From contig CBDCCZ010000028.1 of NCBI GenBank assembly GCA_965215005.1, positions 1 through 35,823 of the forward strand: a DNA stretch of 35,823 nucleotides. The letters run 5' to 3'. Source of the DNA: Kofleriaceae bacterium (GTDB lineage Bacteria > Myxococcota_A > Polyangia > Haliangiales > Haliangiaceae). The notes under the pieces are model-generated. The model was given only the letters and a program-made list of their open reading frames with translations, searched no databases and was not told where the DNA came from. Shown here one piece after another: positions 1-12,681 of the stretch. Numbering within the stretch: the first letter of the stretch is position 1; every line of letters starts with the position of its first letter. A program made the translations under genes and the position numbers.

Positions 1-78
1 CGTGAGGGTGACGATCGCCAACGCCGCATCGTAGATCGCCAACGCCCACCAAACCAGCAAAGCGCGCCGAATAGCCAC
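1..78 (-). CDS. N-terminus of a probable membrane protein (partial, runs off the window)
   Basis: Reverse strand from GTG at 78 reads VAIRRALLVWWALAIYDAALAIVTLT, open to the window edge. It is basic then hydrophobic and divergent from scoA. Confidence 0.45.
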   Translation of the reverse strand, partial: MAIRRALLVWWALAIYDAALAIVTLT

Positions 79-95
79 GGCACCGCCGCGGTGGT

Positions 96-125
96 TTGAC
101 ACGACCGCAGCGCTACTCCCATGAT
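96..125 (+). promoter_or_regulatory. Putative sigma70 promoter of scoAB
   Basis: Perfect TTGACA (96-101), 18-nt spacer, CATGAT (120-125), ending 8 nt before the ATG at 134. Confidence 0.5.
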
Positions 126-133
126 GCCCGCCG

Positions 134-829
134 ATGGACAAGGTCTACTCAAGCGCCCGCGACGCGCTCGCTGAGATCGGCGACGGCGCGGTGGTCATGT
201 CCGGCGGCTTCGGCTTGTGCGGGAATCCCGAGAACTGCATTCGCGAGCTCGCGCGCCGCGGCGTCAAGGACCTCACGATCATCTCGAACAACTGCGGAAC
301 CACCGACAAGGGCCTCGGCGTGCTCCTCGCCGGGGGCCAGGTCAAGAAGATGATTGCCTCGTACGTTGGCGAGAACAAGATTTTCGAGAAGCTGTTCCTT
401 TCCGGTGAGCTCGAGGTCGAGCTCAACCCGCAGGGGACGCTCGCCGAGCGAATACGCGCCGGCGGCGCCGGCATCGAGGCGTTTTACACGCCGACAGGCT
501 ACGGCACCAAGGTCGCCGAAGGCAAAGAAACCCGGGAAATCGGCGGCCGCATGTGCGTGCTCGAGCACGCGCTGCGCGCCGACGTCGCGATCATCAAAGC
601 GTGGCGCGGCGATCGCTGGGGCAACCTGCAGTTTCGCAAGACCGCGCGCAACTTCAACAGCATGATGGCCACCGCCGCCACGGTCACCGTGGCCGAGGTC
701 GAAGAGCTCGTCGACGTCGGCGAGCTCGACCCCGATCAAATCCACACGCCTTCGATTTACGTGCAGCGCGTGTTCGTGGGCAGCGACTACGAAAAGCCCA
801 TCGAGCAGCGCACGGTGAGGTCGCGATGA
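134..829 (+). CDS. scoA: 3-oxoacid CoA-transferase subunit A
   Basis: Motifs [40 protein letters not shown] and IHTPSIYV. Confidence 0.95.
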
Positions 830-1488
830 TGGCCAAGCTCAGTCGAGAACAGATCGCCCAGCGCGCCGCGCGCGAGCTCCGCGACGGCTTTTACGTCAAC
901 CTCGGCATCGGCATGCCGACGCTGGTTCCCAACTACGTCCCGGCAGGCGTGCAGGTGGTCTTGCAGTCGGAGAACGGCATGCTCGGCATCGGTCCGTTTC
1001 CCTACGAAGGCGATGAGGACCCCGATCTCATCAACGCTGGCAAGCAAACCGTAACCGCGCTGCCGGGAACCGTGTTCTTCGACTCTGCGGAGAGCTTCGC
1101 GATGATTCGCGGCGGCCACATCGATATGGCGATCCTGGGAGCGATGCAGGTGTCGGCGCGCGGCGATTTGGCCAACTGGATGATTCCGGGCAAGATGATC
1201 AAAGGCATGGGCGGTGCGATGGATCTCGTCGCCGGCGCCCGCAGGGTCATCGTGATGATGGACCACGTTGCTCGCTCCGGTGAGCCGAAGATTCTGAGCG
1301 ACTGCAACCTGCCACTGACCGGCGTGGGCTGCGTGGATCGCATCATCACCGACATGGCGGTGCTCGATGTGACCGCCGAAGGACTCGTGTTGCGCGAGGT
1401 AGCGCCAGGAATCGAGCCTGCCGAGGTGCAGGCGGCGACCGAGCCGCGCCTGGTGGTGGCATCCGATCTGCGCGTCATGCTCGGCTAG
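826..1488 (+). CDS. scoB: 3-oxoacid CoA-transferase subunit B
   Basis: Motifs NLGIGMPT, catalytic SENG, DLINAGK and [12 protein letters not shown] at 826 overlaps the scoA stop (ATGA); the ORF-track start at 553 is too far upstream. Confidence 0.95.
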
Positions 1489-1607
1489 CGTGCCCGGCTT
1501 CGCCTTTGCGGCGGCGGAGCGATTGCTACCGGGACAGAGTCTGCGGGTCAGAGTCCAGAAATACGGCGGCACCGGCCTACCATGCCGTCAGCTTCGTCCG
1601 TAGAACC

Positions 1608-1637
1608 TTGATTTCCCTAGGAAACGCCGCTTAGACT
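1608..1637 (+). promoter_or_regulatory. Putative sigma70 promoter of the IHF/HU gene
   Basis: TTGATT (1608-1613), 18-nt spacer, TAGACT (1632-1637), followed by a GGGGAG RBS before the ATG at 1663. Confidence 0.5.
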
Positions 1638-1662
1638 CGAGCACGTAGCAGGGGGAGCCCTC

Positions 1663-2010
1663 ATGGCGGTGACCAAAAGCGACCTCGTTGAGCAGCTATC
1701 CGAACAGTTGAAGCTGCCCAAGGGGAAAGCCGAAGCAGTCGTGAACATCATGTTCGACTGCATGATCTCGGCACTACAACAAGAAGAGCGCATCGAGATT
1801 CGCGGCTTTGGCAGCTTCGAGGTGCGACACTACAAAGCCTACGAAGGGCGCAATCCGCGCACCGGCGATGCCGTGCACGTTGCGCCCAAGAAGCTGCCGT
1901 TCTTCAAGGTGGGCAAAGAGCTGCGCGAACGCGTCAACGGCGGCACCGGTCCGATCGAAGACGGCGATGACGACGGCGACGACGAGGACTCCGCCGACAG
2001 CGCGGCGTAA
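1663..2010 (+). CDS. ihfB: Integration host factor beta-like / HU-family DNA-binding protein
   Basis: Motifs TKSDL, RIEIRGFGSF, GRNPRTG and PFFKVGKELRERVN; acidic C-terminal tail. Confidence 0.88.
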   Translation: MAVTKSDLVEQLSEQLKLPKGKAEAVVNIMFDCMISALQQEERIEIRGFGSFEVRHYKAYEGRNPRTGDAVHVAPKKLPFFKVGKELRERVNGGTGPIEDGDDDGDDEDSADSAA

Positions 2011-2016
2011 GCGCGC

Positions 2017-4408
2017 CTAGAAGAAGACGCGCGCGGTTACCATTGCGTTGAGGGGGCGTCCCGGGGGTGAAGTGGACGTCTTCGCAACCGGCGAAGTTGC
2101 CGTCGTCATCGAGCGCAGCACGCGTCGCTGCAGGACAGGCTTGGGCAGCAGGCGGCGCAGCCGTCGCCGGATCACCCGCGACGCGGGAGGCGGTCGCGAA
2201 CTGCGCCTCACGCCAATCGCTGGCGAGCAGGTTGTCGATCGACACGACGAGCTCCCAGGCGCCCGTGCGATAGCCGGCGCCAACGTCCAGGAGCGTAAAC
2301 CCCTCCGCCTGCAGGAATCCATCTTCGGTGAGCGGACGATCGCTGATGCTGCGCAGCCCGAGGCGACCGAAGAAACCGCGCGGGTGGAGCGCCGATAGCC
2401 CCGCGGTGAGCGTTGCGCGCGGCGCGAGCGGAATCTCATCTTCATCGGCGGGCGCGTCGCGAAATCGCCCCCGCGACACGGTCAGGTCAACGTCGGCAAA
2501 TAGCCACGAGAGGAGCGCCGCGCGCGCCTCGAGGTCAAGCCCCAGCCGGCGCGTCGGACCGCGGGCCTCGGTGACACCTTCATCGCCCACCCAGACGATC
2601 TCGCTGTCGAGATCGAGCAGCCACAGCGAGCCGGCGAGGTCGACTCGCTCGAGCAGCTGCGTGCGGGCCCCCAAATCGTACCCCGTTGCGACTGCCAGCG
2701 GTGTGCCGGGGTTGGGTCGCGAAACCACCGCCCGGGCGTCGTTGGAGTGAAAGCCGCGGCCGGCGTTGAGGTAAATCTCCAACGAGTCTGCCGTTCGGAG
2801 CGGCGTTAGAACCAGCGACGCTTTTGGGCTGGCGATGGCTTTCTCCCGCACCCCCGAGCCGGTGACGCCGTCGGCGTTGAGCTCTTCGAGCACATCGGTG
2901 ACGCGGAAGCCGATGTAGTCCAGGCGTGCGCCGATGACGGTGCGCAGCCAGGAGGTCCAGCGGGTGTCCTCTTGCGCGTAGAGTCCAATCGACGTCTGGT
3001 GGATGGTGGCGTCGACTCGCTTGGCGAAGCGCTCGCGCCGGCTCGTTCGATACAGCGCATTGTCAATGGCGTCGGCGCGCACGGAGCTACCCAAGGTGGT
3101 GTCAAACACCATCCCGGCCCAGCGCCGGCGAAACCGATACCGCGCGGCGGTGCCGGTCACCACGCGATCGTCGATTTGCTCGATTTGATCGCCATTTAGG
3201 GGGTCTTCGAGGAGAAAGGTGAAGTTTGAATACAACGTGAAGCCGTAGCGAATCGCGTACGCCAGCAGCTCGAGCTCGCTCTGCTCATCGGGCTGCACGC
3301 GATATCGCGCGTAGGCGCTGTGGCGCGAGGAGTTGCCGCCTTCGCTCGCATCAAGACTGCCAAAACGCGCCAGTCGCCCTGCCTCGACCTCGCGCAGCGG
3401 CAACTGGCCCGAGCCGTTCCAGCCGCCGCCGTAACTCGTGATGGTCAGTGAAAGGGACGCGCGCGGCGCCTGGTGCGTAGCGCGCGCGAAGGTGTTGTAA
3501 CGCAGATAGCCCTCGCCATTGTCGAAGGGACCGTTGGTGAAGTACGCCTCACCGGCGAGCAGCGATGACCATGACTCGGTGGGCGCGGGGCTCAGGATAC
3601 CCAGCAGTCGGTAGGTGTCGAAGCGGCCAACGGTGAGCGAGAGCGATGAGGAGTCCATGCTTCGATGGGTGAGAAAATCGACCGCGCCAGCGGTGGCAAA
3701 GTCGCCTTCGGCGGCAGCATACGGCCCCTTGACGATGTCGATTCGCTCGACCAGCTCGGGGATTACGAAGTTGAGGTCGGCATAGCCTTGCCCATGGCCG
3801 TGGCTCACCATGTTGACTGGCACACCATCGACGCTCAACGCGATGTCGGTACCGTGGTCGGCATCAAAACCGCGCAGGAAATACTGATTGGCCTTGCCGC
3901 CACCGGAGTGCTGATTGACGAACATTCCCGGCACCACGCGCAAGATGTCGGCGGGGCGCGGGTGGGGCCGCAGCAAGAAGTCGCGGTCGCGAACGCTCTG
4001 CGAGGCGACCGGCACATACGGCGCCTCGCCCTCCAGCGAGATGACCTCTCCCGCGAGCTCTTCGTCTTGCAGCGGTGGTATCGCCATCGCCGCTGCGGTT
4101 TCCGGCGGCGGGGCTGGCTCGATAGCTAGTACGCCGCCGCGGGCTTGATGACGCAGAAATCCGCCGCCCCGATGCGGGGCAAGGGCGGCCGATTTCTGCT
4201 GCTCAGGCGCCCCCTTCGGCGTCTCCCCAAGCGATTGTTGTTTTTCTAGCGGTTCACGACTTCCGCCGTGAACCGCTAGCGGCGAAGGTGGCAGCGAGGC
4301 AGCGGGAGGCTCTAGAGGCACGGCGGCCGGTGCCGGCTCCGCGCGCACGAATCGACAATTAACAGCGATGGCCAGCACCGCGGCGCTGACGGAACAGAGG
4401 GCATGCAT
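2017..4408 (-). CDS. TonB-dependent outer membrane receptor (His-rich plug), frameshifted near the C-terminus
   Basis: Signal peptide from ATG 4408 (GAGGAAG RBS; GTG 4423 is an alternative). Plug motifs NQHSGGGKANQYFLRGFDADHGTD, SHGHGQGYADL and ERIDIVKGPY, then a beta-barrel. The expected terminal strand LNAMVTARVFF* lies in another frame and ends at 2017. Confidence 0.9.
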
Positions 4409-4415
4409 CGAGTTC

Positions 4416-4521
4416 TTCCTCACTGCACCGGCGCGCGGAGGAACGTGCTATCGCGCCTCATCGCCGCGATGAGCGGTTCTATGGGCGCGCGCGTTCCTCG
4501 CGCAGGCAATCGCGCCGGCGC
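4416..4521 (-). promoter_or_regulatory. Structured 5' leader with alternative stem-loops next to the receptor RBS
   Basis: Nested inverted repeats 4425-4435/4511-4521, 4438-4448/4489-4499 and 4457-4463/4467-4473. The TTCCTC arm can instead pair with the RBS GAGGAA (4421-4416). Confidence 0.55.
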
Positions 4522-4661
4522 GTTGCTAACGGTTGATGCCCGAGTCTCGGCCCGGGTCGTAGTTCTAGGTTCTAGGCGCAAACGCTCGTCGGGGCGGCAG
4601 CGCGCACGTTGTGCACCCGCCTCGCTCACTCGCACGAGCTCTGACTTTCGCTATTGCGATT

Positions 4662-5252
4662 TCAAACAGGCGGCCCACGCACCCGAACGGTGGCAATCCG
4701 TTGCGACGCGGGATATGCAGCGGGTCCGCGTGGCTCGAGCACGAGCTCGAGGCACGCGACGCCTCGGGGCAGCGGCGGCGATACCGGAGCCAATAGCGCC
4801 AAGCCGTAGTGGGCAAGGCTGCCGCTGCCATGGAGCGGATCGCCGGGCGACGGATCGCCATCGGCAGGCTTGGGCTCATGTCGATGCCGGTGAGGCAACG
4901 GGTCGTGGCCAACCGGCAGTGCGGCGGCGTGACGATGCCGCGGCTGTCCCTCACGATGCGCATGCCAGCTACCGCCGGCGACCAGCTCGCGCTGCGCGGC
5001 GCTTGGAGTGACAGGAACGCGCGCGGCCGGTTTGGTGCGAGGAGCGCTTGCCTCGATGCGCGGCGAGCCAAAGGAGCCGCGGCGGTCGGCGCGCAGCGTA
5101 GTAACCGAACGTATGCCGTGCTCGTGCGCTGGCAGCCGCGCATGGGTGGCTAGGTGCAACGCCGGCCCGAATTCGAGCCCCAGCACCCACACCAAGACGC
5201 ACCAGCGCGCTAGTCGCTGCCTACGCCTCCGTGTTCGCTGCGCGCCGCTCAC
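4662..5252 (-). CDS. His-rich exported leader protein with C-terminal RGPP (DUF2946/CruR-like arrest peptide candidate)
   Basis: Basic N-terminus plus hydrophobic segment, 14 His, Pro-rich distal part, ends VRVRGPPV*. It lies directly upstream of and co-oriented with the TonB receptor. Confidence 0.75.
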   Translation of the reverse strand: MSGAQRTRRRRQRLARWCVLVWVLGLEFGPALHLATHARLPAHEHGIRSVTTLRADRRGSFGSPRIEASAPRTKPAARVPVTPSAAQRELVAGGSWHAHREGQPRHRHAAALPVGHDPLPHRHRHEPKPADGDPSPGDPLHGSGSLAHYGLALLAPVSPPLPRGVACLELVLEPRGPAAYPASQRIATVRVRGPPV

Positions 5253-5354
5253 GTCCCCCAGCCACTATCACCGCGACGCCGCTCGCTGCCTAGAGCCAGC
5301 GCCCACGATTGTGCAACGCGCGCTCGTCGCTACGCCGCCGCGCTCGTCGCGTTA

Positions 5355-6050
5355 TCAGAGGCTCGCGGTCGCAGCAATTCGCACCGCAACCTGCAACCGC
5401 CCGCTTGGTAGCGCATCACCAGCGGTGAGCTCGAGGTTGGCGCCGACGAGGAGATTGAACGGGGTGGAAGCGTCCGTGAGCACCTCGGCGAGGTATGCAC
5501 GGGCCTCTCCATCGAGATCGAGCTCAGTGCTCGGTTGCCGAGTGCCGGCAGCAATCGACGGAATCGTACCGATGAGGCGCGCTTGCGGATCGCTGGGGCT
5601 CATCACCGTGGCGGGCGCGACGTAGACCATCAATGGCGGGCTAGCTACGCTGAGCGAGTTGTCGCTGATCTCGTAGCTAGCGACGTGGACGGTAACCGCG
5701 ACCACCGGGTCGAGGTTGGCCAGCTCGGGATGCTCGGCGAGCAAATCGACCTCGGTGGACAGCGCGATGCGCAGCGAGGCGCTGCAGTACATGCCGTCGC
5801 AGGTGCCTTCACACAGCTCCGAGCCGCATTGCGAAGCGATGACGTCGGCGCAAACGGTGGGCTGCTCATCGCACCGCACCTCGCGCAAGCTCGGCTCGGG
5901 CTGCAGCTCCCACTGCGCCGCATCGATGGTGAAGGTCTTGTCGGGAATCGATAAATCGACGACGGTGAGATCGCTGCTAATGAGGCCGCAGCCACCCACC
6001 GCGCACGAGGCGACGACGGCCCCCGCCGTGCGAATGGCCAATTGAAACAT
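5355..6050 (-). CDS. Hypothetical lipoprotein with Cys-rich insert
   Basis: GGAGG RBS, signal ending GGC-GLIS, six-Cys segment CDEQPTVC...CGSELCEGTCDGMYC. Confidence 0.75.
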   Translation of the reverse strand: MFQLAIRTAGAVVASCAVGGCGLISSDLTVVDLSIPDKTFTIDAAQWELQPEPSLREVRCDEQPTVCADVIASQCGSELCEGTCDGMYCSASLRIALSTEVDLLAEHPELANLDPVVAVTVHVASYEISDNSLSVASPPLMVYVAPATVMSPSDPQARLIGTIPSIAAGTRQPSTELDLDGEARAYLAEVLTDASTPFNLLVGANLELTAGDALPSGRLQVAVRIAATASL

Positions 6051-6148
6051 GTAAGCTAGCCTCCTACAACTTCACGAATAAGCGAGCTTTCAAGGTAGCA
6101 CGCCTCGCTCGCTAGGCGCTGCGCGAACCCCCGCGGCCCAGCGAGCAA

Positions 6149-6176
6149 GCCAGTCGGAAAGACAACCGACCCTGGC
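6149..6176 (-). terminator. Possible terminator or stabilising hairpin after the acyl-CoA operon
   Basis: GCCAG-GG-TCGG...CCGA-CTGGC stem about 30 nt past the stop at 6206; only a weak U tract. Confidence 0.35.
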
Positions 6177-6205
6177 AAGCAAGTAGTACGGCCGCTACGG
6201 CACCG

Positions 6206-7441
6206 CTACGGCGACGGCGGCTTGAAGCGCTGCTCGGGTCCGGCCGGCGTATAAAACTGCAGCGCCATCACGCCACTGGAGCCGGCGGTGAAGCTGTGCT
6301 CGATTCCCGCGGGAATCTGAATGGCCATGTCGGCCGTCACCGGATAGGCCTCGCCGTCGATGGTCATGGTGCCGCCGCCTTCGCGCACGAAGAGCAGCTC
6401 CGTCGATGGGTGGGTGTGCGGCGCGATCGCCATGTCGGCAATCGCTTGCAGCTGTCCCGCCGCGATCCGGTCATCGCCAGCACTGGCAGCGTCGAAGAAC
6501 TGGCGCACGGAAGCTTGGCCACCCGCCAGCGGATACACCGGCGCCTTGGCGTGCGTGATCACCATGGGACCGCCGACTCCCTCGCGAGCCAGTTTTCTGG
6601 CTTGCTCCACGCTGACCTCCGTGGTGCCGCGGGCTTCCTTGGGGTCTTCGTAGCGCTGCTCGGGCCCGCCGGGCGCATACACCTGCACCGCCGTCACAGG
6701 GCCCTTCGTGACCTCGAAGCCGGCAGCCACGCCGGCGGCGATGTAGATCGCGTCGCCGGCGCTCACCTTGCGGCCCGCTCGCTTGCCGCGCGCGCCGTAC
6801 ACCACGCCGCTGCCGCTTTCCAGATACCAAACCGTGGCCGCATCGTGCAGCTGCAGCGGCACCACCGCCTTGGGAGCCAAGGTGAGAACGCTGAGCGAGG
6901 CGGCCTGATTGCCGGTGCTCTTGGCATCGAGCAGCACTTGCACGCGCACCGAGCCTTCGCCGTGCACGGGGACGTAGTCGCGGTGCACGGTGAATTGCGC
7001 CGTCGCCGGCGCGAACGCAAACGGCAGCTCGATGCCGATCCCCGGCTCCCAAACCGCCGGCCATTCGTAGTTCTGATACAGCTCGACCAGACATTGGCCA
7101 AGCGCTGGCTCATTGGTCTGATCCGACAGCACCGCCACCTGCCCCGCGGCCGTGGCGCTGGCGAACTCGATCGCTAGCACCACGGTGCCGCTGACTCGAT
7201 AGTTGTTCGCCGCGGCGCGCTCCCAACAGCGGTGCTGCGCCGCCTGATTGTCGTTGACTGCCTTTTCGATGGCAGCGATACGCAGCGCATCCAGCGTCGG
7301 CTCCTGCGACTGCTCGGGCTGCTCGGGCTGCTCAGGCGCAGCGGCTGCGGGCGCTTCTGGCGGCGCCGCGGGCGCGGGCTCTTGCGACCCTCCACAAGCG
7401 GCGAACGTCAGCGCCACCCACGCCGCTCGCCCAAGCATCAT
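6206..7441 (-). CDS. Lipoprotein: AgmX/PglI C-terminal-like domain fused to two cupin domains
   Basis: Lipobox FAAC; HRCWE...GTVVLAIEF...GQCLVE...IELPFAF; two cupin repeats each ending YxPxGPEQR (second has HTH...E...H). ATGA overlap with the upstream gene. Confidence 0.8.
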   Translation of the reverse strand: MMLGRAAWVALTFAACGGSQEPAPAAPPEAPAAAAPEQPEQPEQSQEPTLDALRIAAIEKAVNDNQAAQHRCWERAAANNYRVSGTVVLAIEFASATAAGQVAVLSDQTNEPALGQCLVELYQNYEWPAVWEPGIGIELPFAFAPATAQFTVHRDYVPVHGEGSVRVQVLLDAKSTGNQAASLSVLTLAPKAVVPLQLHDAATVWYLESGSGVVYGARGKRAGRKVSAGDAIYIAAGVAAGFEVTKGPVTAVQVYAPGGPEQRYEDPKEARGTTEVSVEQARKLAREGVGGPMVITHAKAPVYPLAGGQASVRQFFDAASAGDDRIAAGQLQAIADMAIAPHTHPSTELLFVREGGGTMTIDGEAYPVTADMAIQIPAGIEHSFTAGSSGVMALQFYTPAGPEQRFKPPSP

Positions 7442-8586
7442 GCCGCTCCCTTGAGAAGCTCGCGGGCGATCACGATGCGCTGAATCTCGCTGGTGCCTTC
7501 GTAGATGCGGGTCACGCGCACGTCGCGGTAGGCCCGCTCTACTGGATAGTCGTGCGTGTAACCGTAGCCGCCATGGACCTGCAGCGCGATGTCGCAGATG
7601 CGGCCAGCGTGCTCGGTGGCAAACAGCTTCGCCATCGACGCCTCGCGCGTGAAGCGCTTGCCGGATTCCTTGAGCGCAGCGGCGCGCAGCACCATGAGCG
7701 TGGCGGCTTCGAGCCAGGTCGCGGCATCGGCGAGCTGATTGCCGATGCCTTGGTGGCGCAGAATCGGTTGGCCGAACTGCTCACGCTCAGCGGCGTATCG
7801 CACCGCCGCGTCGAGCGCCATCCGTGCGATGCCCACCGCTTGCGAGGCGATGCCGATGCGACCGCCGTCGAGCGCCATCATCGCCAGCTTGAAGCCATCG
7901 CCCACCTGCCCCAGCACCGCGTCATCGCCCACCTCCACGCCCTCGAGCACCAGCTGCACGGTGGTCGAGCCGTGCAGCCCCATCTTGTCCTCGGCGCGCC
8001 CCACGGTGAGCCCCTTGGCACCACCAGCGACCAGGAACGCGGTGATGCCGCGGTGGCCGGCAGCGGCGTCGGTGAGCGCCCACACCACCACCAAGCCCGC
8101 GCGGTCGCCGCTGGTGATCCACTGCTTGGTGCCATCGAGTCGCCAGCCCGAGGAGGTCTTGGTCGCGGTGGTGCGCATCGCTGCCGGATCAGAGCCCGCC
8201 TGCGGCTCCGACAACGCGAAGCTGCCAGCAATGAACTCACCGGCTACCAGTGGCTTGACGAAGCGTTGCTTCTGCGGCTCGCTGCCCATCGCGCAGATGA
8301 GCTCGGCCACCATGTTGTTGACCGACACCGCCACCGACACCGAGGCATCCGCGTACGCTAGTTCTTGCAGCGCCAATGAATAGGCGATAACGCCCGCCTC
8401 GGCGCCACCCCACGCCTCCGGCACGTTGACGCCAAATAGCCCGAGCGCCGCGAGCGCGCGCAGCTCTTCTTCGGGGAAGGTGCCGCGAAGATCGCGCTCC
8501 GCCGCACGCGGCACCAGCACCTTCTGCGCGTAGTCGCGCGCCGTCCGCTGGACCATCTTCTGCTCATCGGTGAGCTCGAGCTGCAT
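7438..8586 (-). CDS. Acyl-CoA dehydrogenase
   Basis: Motifs FALSEPQAGSD, GTKQWIT, KMGLHGS, LDGGRIGIA, QVHGGYGY and IYEGTSEIQR. Confidence 0.95.
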   Translation of the reverse strand: MQLELTDEQKMVQRTARDYAQKVLVPRAAERDLRGTFPEEELRALAALGLFGVNVPEAWGGAEAGVIAYSLALQELAYADASVSVAVSVNNMVAELICAMGSEPQKQRFVKPLVAGEFIAGSFALSEPQAGSDPAAMRTTATKTSSGWRLDGTKQWITSGDRAGLVVVWALTDAAAGHRGITAFLVAGGAKGLTVGRAEDKMGLHGSTTVQLVLEGVEVGDDAVLGQVGDGFKLAMMALDGGRIGIASQAVGIARMALDAAVRYAAEREQFGQPILRHQGIGNQLADAATWLEAATLMVLRAAALKESGKRFTREASMAKLFATEHAGRICDIALQVHGGYGYTHDYPVERAYRDVRVTRIYEGTSEIQRIVIARELLKGAA

Positions 8587-8589
8587 CGT

Positions 8590-9333
8590 TTACTCCGGGT
8601 TGTACGTAAAACTCGTTTTAGTGACCGCGCCGAGTGGATCGCTGAGCGTCCAGCTGCCGATGCGTTCGGCCGCGCAATCTTTCCAGGCATCGGCCACCGG
8701 CTCGGCTCCCAGGGACGCAAACCCCACCGACTGCACCTGCCCGCGCGCGCCCACGTAGAGGGTGACTTCCACCGGTGCCGACTCGGCCATCTCGGCGCAC
8801 TCCGCGAGCTCGCCCGTGAGCTCAGCGACCTCCTCCAGGCCGCGGTCGGCGTACCACTGGCTGGCGCGCCGCGCGCTAAACTCGAGCGGCAGGGTGAAAT
8901 CGGCCTCGCCCCCTTGCGGCTCGACGAAGCGCATCGTGCGCGCCGTCTCCAGCAGGCACTTCTCGACCGGCCACGCCCCTAGATCGCTGCGCACCAGCTG
9001 CACCCAGCGCACGCTTCCATCCCGCGCCAGCTCGTATTTCAGCTCGACGTTGCCGCCGATGAAGCGCTTCTTGCCGACGTTGCGGTTGTAACAGGCCTCG
9101 AGCGCGCGCGCGTGAGGTCGTACGCCCTCTTGAATGTCGTAGGCAGAGATGCGGCCGCGTAGCCCGGCGACCTCGACGCCGTCGTCGGAGTCTTCATCCA
9201 TGTCCGGCACCGCCGCGCGCCGCGACATTGGCAGCTCGCCCGGCTCGATGCCGTCATCGGCCTGCCGCGCCGCTGGCTTATCCGCGCCGCCGCACGCCGC
9301 CGCCATTGCCGCGACAACCGCCATGCGGTGCAT
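8590..9333 (-). CDS. Lipoprotein with two AgmX/PglI C-terminal-like (TonB-C-like) domains
   Basis: Lipobox AAAC; LEACY...GNVELKY...VEKCL...FTLPLEF, then a second Cys-paired copy ending TSFTY. Confidence 0.8.
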   Translation of the reverse strand: MHRMAVVAAMAAACGGADKPAARQADDGIEPGELPMSRRAAVPDMDEDSDDGVEVAGLRGRISAYDIQEGVRPHARALEACYNRNVGKKRFIGGNVELKYELARDGSVRWVQLVRSDLGAWPVEKCLLETARTMRFVEPQGGEADFTLPLEFSARRASQWYADRGLEEVAELTGELAECAEMAESAPVEVTLYVGARGQVQSVGFASLGAEPVADAWKDCAAERIGSWTLSDPLGAVTKTSFTYNPE

Positions 9334-11006: not shown

Positions 11007-11789
11007 TTACTTGCCCTCAAATTTCGCCGGGCGCTTGGCGAGGAAGGCGGCCATGCCTTCCTTTTGATCAACCGTGGCAAACAGCCCGCCGAAGGCGCGC
11101 TGCTCGAGCAAGATGGCCGACTCGAGACTCATCGACTGGCCAACGTGAATCAGCCGCTTGGCCTCGGCCACCGCCAACGGTCCATTGGCCGCGATCGCGT
11201 TGGTGGTCTCGCGAACCTTGTCCATCAGCGCCGCGGGCTCGAGCACCGCGTCAACGAGCCCGATGCGCAGCGCCTCGGCAGCGTCGATGATCGAACCGGT
11301 GACGCATAGCTCTTTGGCCTTGGCCACGCCGACCCGGCGCGCCAGCCGCTGGGTGCCGCCAAAGCCGGGGATGACGCCGAGCTTGACCTCGGGCTGGCCT
11401 AGCTTGGCCCGGCTCGAGGCATAGATGAAGTCGCACGCCAGCGCCAGCTCACAGCCGCCGCCGAGGGCAAAGCCGTTGACCGCTGCGATGTAGACCTTGG
11501 CCGAGCTTTCGATGGCGGTGCCGAGATTGCCGCCCATCTCCGCCAGCGCTTGCGCCGCCAGCGGATCGAGCTCGCGCATCTCGGCGATATCGGCGCCAGC
11601 GACAAAGGCTTTGTCGCCGGCCCCGGTGACCGCCACCACCCGCACCTCATCGGAGAGCTCGAGCTCGGCGACGGCGTTGGTGAGCTCCGCCAAGACGCCG
11701 CTGCCCAGCGCATTGAGCGCCTTTTCGCGCGCGACCGTGAGAATGGCCAGCGGTCCGCTCAGCTCGACGGTGATGTATTGGTACTCCAC
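11007..11789 (-). CDS. crt: Enoyl-CoA hydratase (crotonase)
   Basis: Motifs KAFVAGADI, AVNGFALGGGCELALACD and GQPEVKLGVIPGFGGTQRL. The likely start is GTG 11789, just after the hbd stop. Confidence 0.92.
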   Translation of the reverse strand: MEYQYITVELSGPLAILTVAREKALNALGSGVLAELTNAVAELELSDEVRVVAVTGAGDKAFVAGADIAEMRELDPLAAQALAEMGGNLGTAIESSAKVYIAAVNGFALGGGCELALACDFIYASSRAKLGQPEVKLGVIPGFGGTQRLARRVGVAKAKELCVTGSIIDAAEALRIGLVDAVLEPAALMDKVRETTNAIAANGPLAVAEAKRLIHVGQSMSLESAILLEQRAFGGLFATVDQKEGMAAFLAKRPAKFEGK

Positions 11790-11790
11790 C

Positions 11791-12681
11791 TCAGGCCTTC
11801 TTTCCCTGCGGGTCGTACTTGTAGAAGCCGCGTCCGGCCTTGCGCCCGAGCCACCCGGCTGCCACGTGCTGGCGCAGCAGCGGACATGGCCGATACTTGT
11901 CGTCGCCGAGCTCGTCATGAAGCACTTCGGCGATCGCCAGGCAGGTATCGAGGCCGATGAGGTCGGCGAGCTCGAGCGGCCCCATCGGGTGATTGAGCCC
12001 GAGCTTGACGCCGGTATCGATGTCCTCGACGGTGCCGAGACCTTCATAAAGGGCGTAACAAGCTTCATTGAGCAGCGGAATCAACACCCGGTTGACGATG
12101 AAGCCGGGGATGTCGCGGGCCGCGATGGTGGTCTTGCCGAAGCGCTGCGCCAGCGCCACCGTGGTGTCGTAGGTTTCTTGGTCCGTTGGCAGCCCGCGCA
12201 CCACCTCGACCAGCTTCATCAGCGGCACCGGATTCATGAAATGCATGCCGATGACTTTTTCCGGACGCGAGGTCGTAGCGCCGAGCTTGGTGATGGAGAT
12301 CGACGAGGTGTTCGAAGCCAAGATCGCCTCGGGCGCGGTCACCTCGTTGAGGCGCCGAAAGATGCTCGTCTTGAGCGCTTCGGCTTCCGGCGCGGCTTCG
12401 ATCACGAAGTCGCAGCCGGCCAGCGACTCGTAGCCGTCGGCAGCACGAATGCGCGCGATGGCCTCATCCCGCTCGCCACTTCCGAGCTTGCTCTTCTCGA
12501 CCAAGCGATCGAGCACCTTGGAGATGGAACCCACCGCTTTCTTGGCGTCCGCCGGGCTCGCGTCGAGGATGACCACGCTCAGACCCGACTGCGCAGCCAC
12601 CTGCGCAATGCCGCGGCCCATTTGCCCGCCGCCGACGACACCCAAGCTCTTCACCGGGGCCGTGCCGCTCGCCGCGGCCAT
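11791..12681 (-). CDS. hbd: 3-hydroxybutyryl-CoA / 3-hydroxyacyl-CoA dehydrogenase
   Basis: Motifs GGGQMGRGIA, ASNTSSISIT, GMHFMNPVP, PGFIVNR and NHPMGPLELADLIGLD. Confidence 0.95.
   Translation of the reverse strand: MAAASGTAPVKSLGVVGGGQMGRGIAQVAAQSGLSVVILDASPADAKKAVGSISKVLDRLVEKSKLGSGERDEAIARIRAADGYESLAGCDFVIEAAPEAEALKTSIFRRLNEVTAPEAILASNTSSISITKLGATTSRPEKVIGMHFMNPVPLMKLVEVVRGLPTDQETYDTTVALAQRFGKTTIAARDIPGFIVNRVLIPLLNEACYALYEGLGTVEDIDTGVKLGLNHPMGPLELADLIGLDTCLAIAEVLHDELGDDKYRPCPLLRQHVAAGWLGRKAGRGFYKYDPQGKKA

Follow-up and report, generated by a model that had tools for sequence, protein, structure and literature searches.

The open reading frame of 196 codons that runs from 5252 to 4662 on the minus strand of the window, as we call the whole analysed stretch of 35,823 nucleotides from a Kofleriaceae bacterium, is very probably the conserved leader gene of the TonB-dependent receptor encoded behind it, acting in cis by ribosome arrest. 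With less assurance, and judging from sequence comparison, we propose that it is a switch in which the arrest is likely released by a metal, most likely nickel or cobalt. The leader is conserved among homologous loci, keeps its position before the receptor gene, maintains a fixed spacing between a His pair and its C-terminus, lacks a CxxC motif and precedes a receptor with a recurrent gene context. The initial annotation had read this frame as a His-type metal-sensing arrest leader, and the overall reading is supported by the comparative test, by the histidines in the position of CxxC and by the nickel/cobalt context of the receptor.

The leader starts with GTG and ends in RGPPV-TGA, and the co-oriented TonB-dependent receptor (Pfam Plug and TonB barrel) lies 253 nt downstream, as had been described. 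Its N-terminal part comprises an Arg-rich n-region and a hydrophobic helix, a predicted signal or signal anchor (aa 7-36, 5145..5234, minus strand as for all parts below), with W..G.E..P.LH conserved in subfamily A1. The signal or membrane segment claimed earlier corresponds to this Arg-rich N-terminus and the stretch behind it, which is moderately hydrophobic (best 19-aa Kyte-Doolittle mean of 1.57). The AlphaFold model predicts a helix at residues 3-39 (pLDDT 86-98); as a whole it is of low confidence (pLDDT 61.6, pTM 0.32) and no metal site is visible in it. Right behind the hydrophobic segment lies a proximal His cluster (H33, H37, H43 and H45, 5118..5156), in which H33 is invariant in all 28 A1 sequences and which is found anywhere from 77 to 236 residues ahead of the stall motif. 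The His-rich middle (aa 46-140, 4833..5117) is variable, gappy in the A1 alignment and predicted to be disordered (pLDDT 40-60). It is followed by the distal His pair HGSGSLAH (H141 and H148, 4809..4832), invariant in A1 and fixed in its spacing, and by a Pro-rich, His-poor linker of 43 residues (4680..4808), fixed in length and variable in sequence. The RGPP motif (aa 192-195, 4668..4679) stalls ribosomes in other proteins (PMC12992588, PMC10987492). The intergenic region of 253 nt (4409..4661) contains the Shine-Dalgarno sequence GAGGAAG of the receptor at 4415-4421.

The 14 histidines counted in the first reading were confirmed, with HEH (aa 43), HAH (97), HRH (106), HRHRH (121) and HGSGSLAH (141-148), as were the Pro-rich end (9 Pro in aa 153-196) and the lack of CxxC, the only Cys being two isolated residues at 18 and 167. 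The genome of the window has a size of 6.2 Mb, a GC content of 65% and a completeness of 92.8%. At this GC content, RGPP occurs within the last 16 residues of 35 of the 59,967 six-frame ORFs of at least 60 codons, and therefore a terminal RGPP alone weighs little. Pfam and NCBIfam gave no match for the leader, a homolog search with the single sequence returned nothing at E values up to 1, and the family surfaced only via the neighbourhood of receptor homologs. Against the profile of its own family, the leader matches with an E value of 4e-31 and is the only strong match in the genome, the query being a member of that alignment. The overlapping ORFs at 4565-5143 (minus) and 4403-5011 (plus) have no Pfam match, no Rfam family was found in window positions 1-9000, and neither a sigma-70 promoter nor an intrinsic terminator pattern was detected in 4380-5400.

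The conservation check suggested by the initial annotation was performed with the receptor as query, which yielded 72 loci, 59 of them with enough upstream DNA. As the loci were collected via the receptor, the conservation found is independent of the leader sequence. A sense ORF of at least 80 codons ending in R[AG]PP was found within 800 nt at 36 of the 59 loci, compared with 1/59 for A[AG]PP, 1/59 for antisense R[AG]PP and 0/53 further upstream. This comparison (36/59 against controls of 0-1) excludes chance. Four more loci carry the same leader family with another end, namely Q[AG]P-stop in L003, L011 and L017 and a lost motif in L071; at the other 19 of the 59, no leader was detectable. 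Two short R[AG]PP ORFs at L013 and L065, included in a first count of 38/59, were discarded as spurious. The leaders fall into two subfamilies, whose mutual alignment is weak (probability 65%, N-terminus only). Subfamily A1 consists of 28 sequences including that of the window, with W..G.E..P.LH...H...HxH followed by HGxxSLAH; A2 consists of 12 sequences, of the Binatia type and other lineages, with HxHxGG..HxH followed by HxH. As anticipated, either HGxxSLAH (H-x6-H) or HxH accompanies the R[AG]PP end in leaders preceding homologous receptors. H33, H141 and H148 are invariant in A1, and H37, H43 and H45 are common. Searching 1.84 billion 50%-identity representatives with the A1 profile retrieved 703 proteins at an E value of 0.001, and the R[AG]PP end is present in 142 of the best 150, a share biased by the profile itself.

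The position right before a co-oriented receptor gene is conserved, as in the class of upstream ORFs (uORFs), and R[AG]PP lies a few residues from the C-terminus of a small protein, as in RAPP/RGPP uORFs. That the frame is non-functional, or that its product is exported and serves in trans as a His-rich metal chaperone, is very improbable. Such a chaperone would fit the 14 histidines and the predicted export signal; however, a free protein would need neither a terminal R[AG]PP nor a linker whose length never varies. Myxococcota proteomes strongly avoid RGPP (mean bias of 0.29, PMC12992588 supplement), and the conservation described above excludes a chance ORF.

The alignment-free count shows the distal His pair as a ruler: in 33 of 37 leaders a His is separated from the Arg by exactly 43 residues, in 21 of 37 there is a second His at 50, and at positions 0-41 His never occurs in more than 5 of the 37. 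Subfamily A2, which can barely be aligned with A1 and has a different motif (HxH), retains His at 45/43. In two DUF2946 proteins the Cys pair is located at 49/46 and 46/43, respectively, a third having no R[AG]PP end. Judged by position in the sequence, the His pair of the leader stands where the Cys pair stands in CruR and DUF2946 proteins. The distal histidines thus occupy the CruR CxxC position, in line with the claim that His clusters replace CxxC; only about 5 of the 14 histidines are conserved.

CruR (Bp2923, DUF2946/PF11162) of Bordetella pertussis is the leader of the TonB-dependent receptor BfrG (PMC9426467; arrest in PMC12992588). Similar to CruR, the window leader is a short ORF with an export signal (predicted here) and a C-terminal RAPP-type motif, with ligands fixed 43-49 residues from the Arg and a long gap to a TonB-dependent receptor gene. 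The ligands are CxxC in CruR, whereas they would be His in the window family (H-x6-H or HxH). Unlike CruR, the window family has a conserved His cluster behind the signal helix, its receptor family is associated with nickel/cobalt, it occurs partly in genomes where Rho was not found, and one clade ends in Q[AG]P-stop. In CruR, 45 residues separate CxxC from RAPP and control is lost when five are added (PMC9426467). CutF of Rhodobacter capsulatus is a Sec-targeted nascent sensor in which the metal motif and a Pro-rich stall site are about 45 residues apart (PMC9973294; bioRxiv 10.1101/2025.02.05.636593), a spacing that has been argued to put the motif into the SecY vestibule on the periplasmic side (PMC9973294). 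By analogy with this geometry, periplasmic sensing by the leader is plausible, although CruR is still regulated without its signal segment (PMC9426467). CutF differs from the window leader in having CxxxC and PPP (PMC9973294). In addition, copper promotes stalling in CutF and opens a Shine-Dalgarno hairpin, turning on a detoxifying oxidase, whereas no such hairpin effect is predicted in the window.

Two alternatives concern what the leader senses. It could resemble SecM in monitoring export or the state of the envelope, with the histidines serving folding or targeting instead of metal sensing. It was as Sec/YidC monitors that RAPP/RGPP peptides bearing export signals were originally defined (PMC10987492, PMC12992588), and any pulling element could yield a fixed spacing. 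This is improbable, since the downstream gene encodes a metal-type importer and not a Sec protein, and what stays constant is a pair of His, found within two distinct sequence contexts (H-x6-H and HxH). The leader could also be a copper switch like CruR with His as copper ligands. His can bind Cu(II), the architecture and spacing are those of CruR and CutF, and language-model features of the leader resemble a DUF2946 cluster at 0.94. However, CxxC was absent from all 41 leaders, each cut back so as to start 12 residues ahead of the hydrophobic segment, and any CxxC was present in only 3 of the best 150 A1-profile matches. Moreover, neither the leader nor the receptor has a conserved Met or Cys, and no copper-system family was found in the 108 neighbouring ORFs scanned save one outer-membrane efflux protein. 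In one plasmid region, a copper-binding protein is encoded 3.5 kb from the receptor homolog. We therefore regard copper, too, as improbable.

The assignment to DUF2946/CruR itself was rejected, as the PF11162, CxxC and copper-operon features are lacking and only the ligand spacing is shared. The window leader has no PF11162 match; among the 28 A1 sequences one matches at an E value of 0.86, and among 88 further members one at 0.096, with 13.9 bits against a cut-off of 23.7. A comparison of the A1 profile with three DUF2946 proteins, a thin alignment, gave a probability of 10% for the N-terminal helix only. We suggest from the sequence comparison that the leader works like CruR, as a His-type variant of the RAPP/RGPP metal-leader class outside DUF2946.

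The Q[AG]P-stop loci above, L003, L011 and L017, are three of a larger group of 20. L017 is the same as L191 (genome G253, unpublished), counts as one of the 28 A1 rows and one of the 59 loci, and bears on no conclusion. In the family of locus L011 (Archangium), for which the name Myxococcaceae is inferred, the receptor was found in 46 of 121 genomes and 30 loci were fetched. The Q[AG]P-stop end is present at 20 of these 30 loci (18 TAG and 2 TGA), compared with none of 747 antisense control ORFs. In these leaders, the last Pro is preceded by His at a distance of 46 residues in 20/20 and of 53 residues in 19/20. The same distances of 46 and 53 separate H148 and H141 of the window leader from the first Pro of RGPP (Pro194), the predicted P-site residue. 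In all RQH-type peptides, toeprinting located the third motif residue in the P site; in the case of NAP-stop and NSP-stop peptides, the A site of the stalled ribosome contains the stop codon (PMC10987492). The first Pro of RAPP in CruR is likewise in the P site (PMC12992588). Since RGPP and Q[AG]P-stop leaders share one and the same His-to-Pro distance, the simplest reading of the sequences is that a stop codon has replaced the A-site Pro in Myxococcaceae while the ruler was kept. This form escapes any search for RAPP/RGPP or terminal PP, and it offers a natural comparison of metal-dependent force release from an A-site Pro and from a stop codon.

The metal is suggested by the genes around the receptor, and nickel/cobalt is our best guess on these sequence grounds. 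Among plasmids, 54 records carry receptor homologs (33-41% identity to the window receptor among the 40 matches listed), and 17 plasmid regions were picked by hand, 12 annotated and 5 unannotated. Genes for NikR, HoxN, HupE/UreJ, hydrogenase or cobalamin functions were found in 10 of the 17 (9/12 annotated, 1/5 unannotated) and nikR in 5; such a nickel/cobalt neighbour is absent from 7, and an R[AGS]PP leader was found in none. In Nitrospira, the receptor homolog sits directly behind nikR. NikR is a nickel-dependent repressor of uptake genes. In a sample of 251 genomes of the phylum, the receptor was found in 43 and NikR in 55. A leader precedes the receptor in ten of these 43, all of them genomes without NikR; of the 33 genomes with a leaderless receptor, 17 have NikR, adjoining the receptor in 4, and in 16 it was not found. 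Five further leader loci, found without receptor selection, have a diverged sister receptor (four) or a lipoprotein (one) as the next gene, and their genomes also lack NikR, giving 0/15 leader-bearing genomes in the sample. In a tree of 114 sequences, the four nikR-adjacent receptors belong to a clade nested among the leader-bearing ones, with moderate support of 0.72-0.85 at the deeper nodes. In Myxococcaceae, NikR was found in only 2 of 121 genomes, whether the leader is present or not. Therefore, in view of this and of the 16/33 leaderless receptor genomes without NikR, the exclusion between leader and NikR follows lineage.

A real rival is the same arrest switch with zinc, or several divalent metals, as the sensed and imported species, which we consider rather unlikely. 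His-only sites bind zinc well and would suit it. No Fur/Zur-family protein was found in the window genome (a Fur-family control was positive in 13 of 14 reference genomes), so that zinc uptake may need another regulator there. The window genome, 92.8% complete as noted, also revealed no NiFe hydrogenase, urease, Ni-SOD or CobN, which speaks against nickel, and no NikR; it has HupE-like and CobW-like genes. An ABC-3 transporter (Zn/Mn type) lies directly upstream of one distant homolog, L120, TldD genes lie behind three homologs, and a zinc ABC operon is near one plasmid copy. Against zinc, the recurrent adjacent regulator is NikR, along with HoxN, hydrogenase and cobalamin genes, and the nikR-linked receptors nest among the leader-linked ones with the same invariant His/Asp set. 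Hydrogenase or Ni-SOD occurs in 9 of the 15 leader genomes, 7 of these 9 belonging to one genus, and neither occurs in 6; once kinship is counted, this co-occurrence of nickel enzymes with the leader is weak.

Other regulators accompany the receptor family as well. At L145, L147, L148 and L149 (G237, G051, G227 and G157), three of which were covered by Pfam, a BlaI/CopY-type repressor and an M56 (BlaR1-like) peptidase are encoded upstream of the receptor. The peptidase in this receptor clade ends in a His-rich tail, and the pair represents a third regulator type for the family. The leaderless receptor homolog at L065:1772-3541 lies behind a NicO-type transporter, an ECF sigma factor and an anti-sigma factor. 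At L159 (G209:C1 near 3314351), the gene behind the leader encodes a lipoprotein with AHPGHY, and a receptor homolog is divergent upstream.

Based on these comparisons, we propose a working cycle for the leader as a nickel/cobalt switch, each step of which is conditional. The N-terminal hydrophobic segment would target the nascent leader to the Sec translocon, and the ribosome would stall with Pro194 of RGPP in the P site, or, in the Q[AG]P-stop form of Myxococcaceae, with the stop codon in the A site. By virtue of the 43-residue linker, H141 and H148 would then be kept at a distance of 46-53 residues from the peptidyl-transferase centre. There, at the periplasmic opening of SecY or close to it, the pair and the His cluster that follows the signal helix may together make up a metal site. 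Upon metal binding, the folding driven by it would pull the chain and release the stall. Under metal shortage, the stalled ribosome would keep the receptor gene on, and release would turn it off. This direction is taken from CruR and from the role of NikR as a nickel-dependent repressor. In the window genome, the last step might most simply proceed by Rho-dependent termination, as for CruR.

Several observations bear on the coupling of leader to receptor. Between the Arg and the receptor start, 49 loci show a median distance of 93 nt, compared with 271 nt in the window. The intergenic RNA folds no better than shuffled sequences (z -1.1), and opening the ribosome-binding site of the window receptor costs 12.2 kcal/mol with a stalled ribosome and 12.2 kcal/mol with none. 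A stall eases opening by more than 1 kcal/mol at 16 of 47 loci, compared with 15 of 47 for a control position. A paired test over the 47 loci gave a nominal p of 0.007 with a median relief of 0.4 kcal/mol, the related loci not being independent and the control position lying farther from the site; start codons were picked by script, and two loci with wrong picks were dropped. An anti-Shine-Dalgarno model was thus rejected as unsupported in the window and not general. The 3' half of the leader is C-rich at 42-45 of 47 loci, as a Rho site would be, a bias that His and Pro codons produce equally. Rho is present in the window genome and was found in 24 of 33 other leader genomes. In the remaining nine (G169, G179, G159, G204, G084, G199, G234, G249 and G209), which are 95-100% complete and seven of which belong to one genus, the Rho RNA-binding domain was not found. 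Therefore, Rho-dependent termination cannot be a family-wide rule, and the coupling step probably differs among lineages.

Much of the general framework is already known. RAPP/RGPP uORFs before TonB-dependent receptors are a class defined in silico across Gram-negative phyla (Fujiwara 2025, PMC12992588), and the window ORF fits the "TonB-related RGPP uORF" class, which the text of that paper does not divide by family or ligand. His-only CutF-like clusters, 14 and 17, have been proposed as nickel/cobalt sensors (Ozturk 2023, PMC9973294), so His-only nickel/cobalt sensing is a published prediction. Like the window leader, these proteins are short, bear a signal (predicted here), end in PP and have only His-rich motifs. 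The clusters precede HupE/UreJ genes, whereas a TonB-dependent receptor gene directly follows the leader in the window and at the loci examined, which were selected by receptor. The Ozturk list is limited to 150 aa, which excludes the window protein and many relatives, and the two groups are set apart here by the descriptions in the text, so that they may overlap (PMC9973294). QAPP (Myxococcales) and X-A/S-P-stop arrest motifs have been demonstrated experimentally (PMC12992588, PMC10987492); the Q- and stop-type peptides tested in PMC10987492 precede sec genes and not metal importers. In the literature searched, metal-sensing arrest peptides are proven only for copper, with CruR and CutF (PMC9426467, PMC12992588, PMC9973294, bioRxiv 10.1101/2025.02.05.636593).

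The initial annotation knew of no described myxobacterial example, and this was borne out: the literature search found no description of the family, the His ruler or the Q[AG]P-stop form, although supplements may list sequences, and the text available from PMC11247825, PMC11658791 and PMC11672702 contains nothing on this leader family. What is fresh is the precision of the register, the way in which leader and NikR replace each other, and the form that arrests at termination. We put forward, tentatively and as something short of probable, that these leaders are the first nickel/cobalt-sensing arrest switches and stand in for NikR in those myxobacterial lineages that lack it, reading metal where the translocon opens, with the His pair set exactly 46 residues from the P site, rewired to termination arrest in Myxococcaceae with the ruler unchanged, and working with and without Rho. 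A register of exactly 46 residues, unchanged between two unrelated His motifs and between two arrest types, predicts the stall codon and the key residues. His-type leaders before an importer that is elsewhere placed under NikR provide a concrete test of nickel/cobalt sensing by a nascent chain, and they offer a regulator-based route to the substrates of an uncharacterised receptor family.

The window receptor (2017..4408, minus strand) belongs to this nickel/cobalt-associated family, matches the Pfam Plug and TonB barrel above the cut-offs and has its closest relatives in Myxococcota and related deltaproteobacteria. Its likely start is the ATG at 4408, 6 nt downstream of GAGGAAG. As assembled, the gene shifts frame at a run of five C at 2052-2056, about 12 codons before the normal end, and runs on to 1934, which removes the C-terminal strand, a point missing from the initial annotation. 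Sixteen homologs end about ten residues after FTPG-P, and the usual ending of the window receptor is present in the next frame. Among the sequencing runs listed for the window there is none of RNA; one run, possibly from the source sample, contains part of the window but has no reads across 2052-2056. The shift may be an assembly error or a recent inactivation, so that this copy is possibly mis-assembled or dead. A dispersed palindromic repeat of about 159 bp (4125..4283, no strand assigned) lies in frame within the N-terminal extension of the receptor and outside the switch; BLAST gave 97 hits, 58 of at least 130 nt, on 33 contigs and in places in tandem.

A fold search with the predicted model of the receptor returned TonB-dependent barrels, the best being PqqU/YncD at 18-19% identity, and no solved relative exceeded 19%. 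Four His and five Asp/Glu residues are invariant in 50/50 leader-linked and 8/8 nikR-linked receptors, and no Met or Cys is conserved among them. The predicted mature N-terminus starts with His (AHP, AHE or AHD) in the leader-linked receptors of L021, L042, L048, L058, L034, L005 and L023, where it is possibly an extra metal site. At L045:5812-8481, another leader-receptor unit lies in tandem behind the first. Elsewhere in the window, the genes for a CoA-transferase (134-1488, plus strand) and a hydroxyacyl-CoA dehydrogenase/enoyl-CoA hydratase (11007-12681, minus strand) each overlap a neighbour by about 280 nt if the first possible start codon is used, and later starts are the likely explanation of these overlaps.
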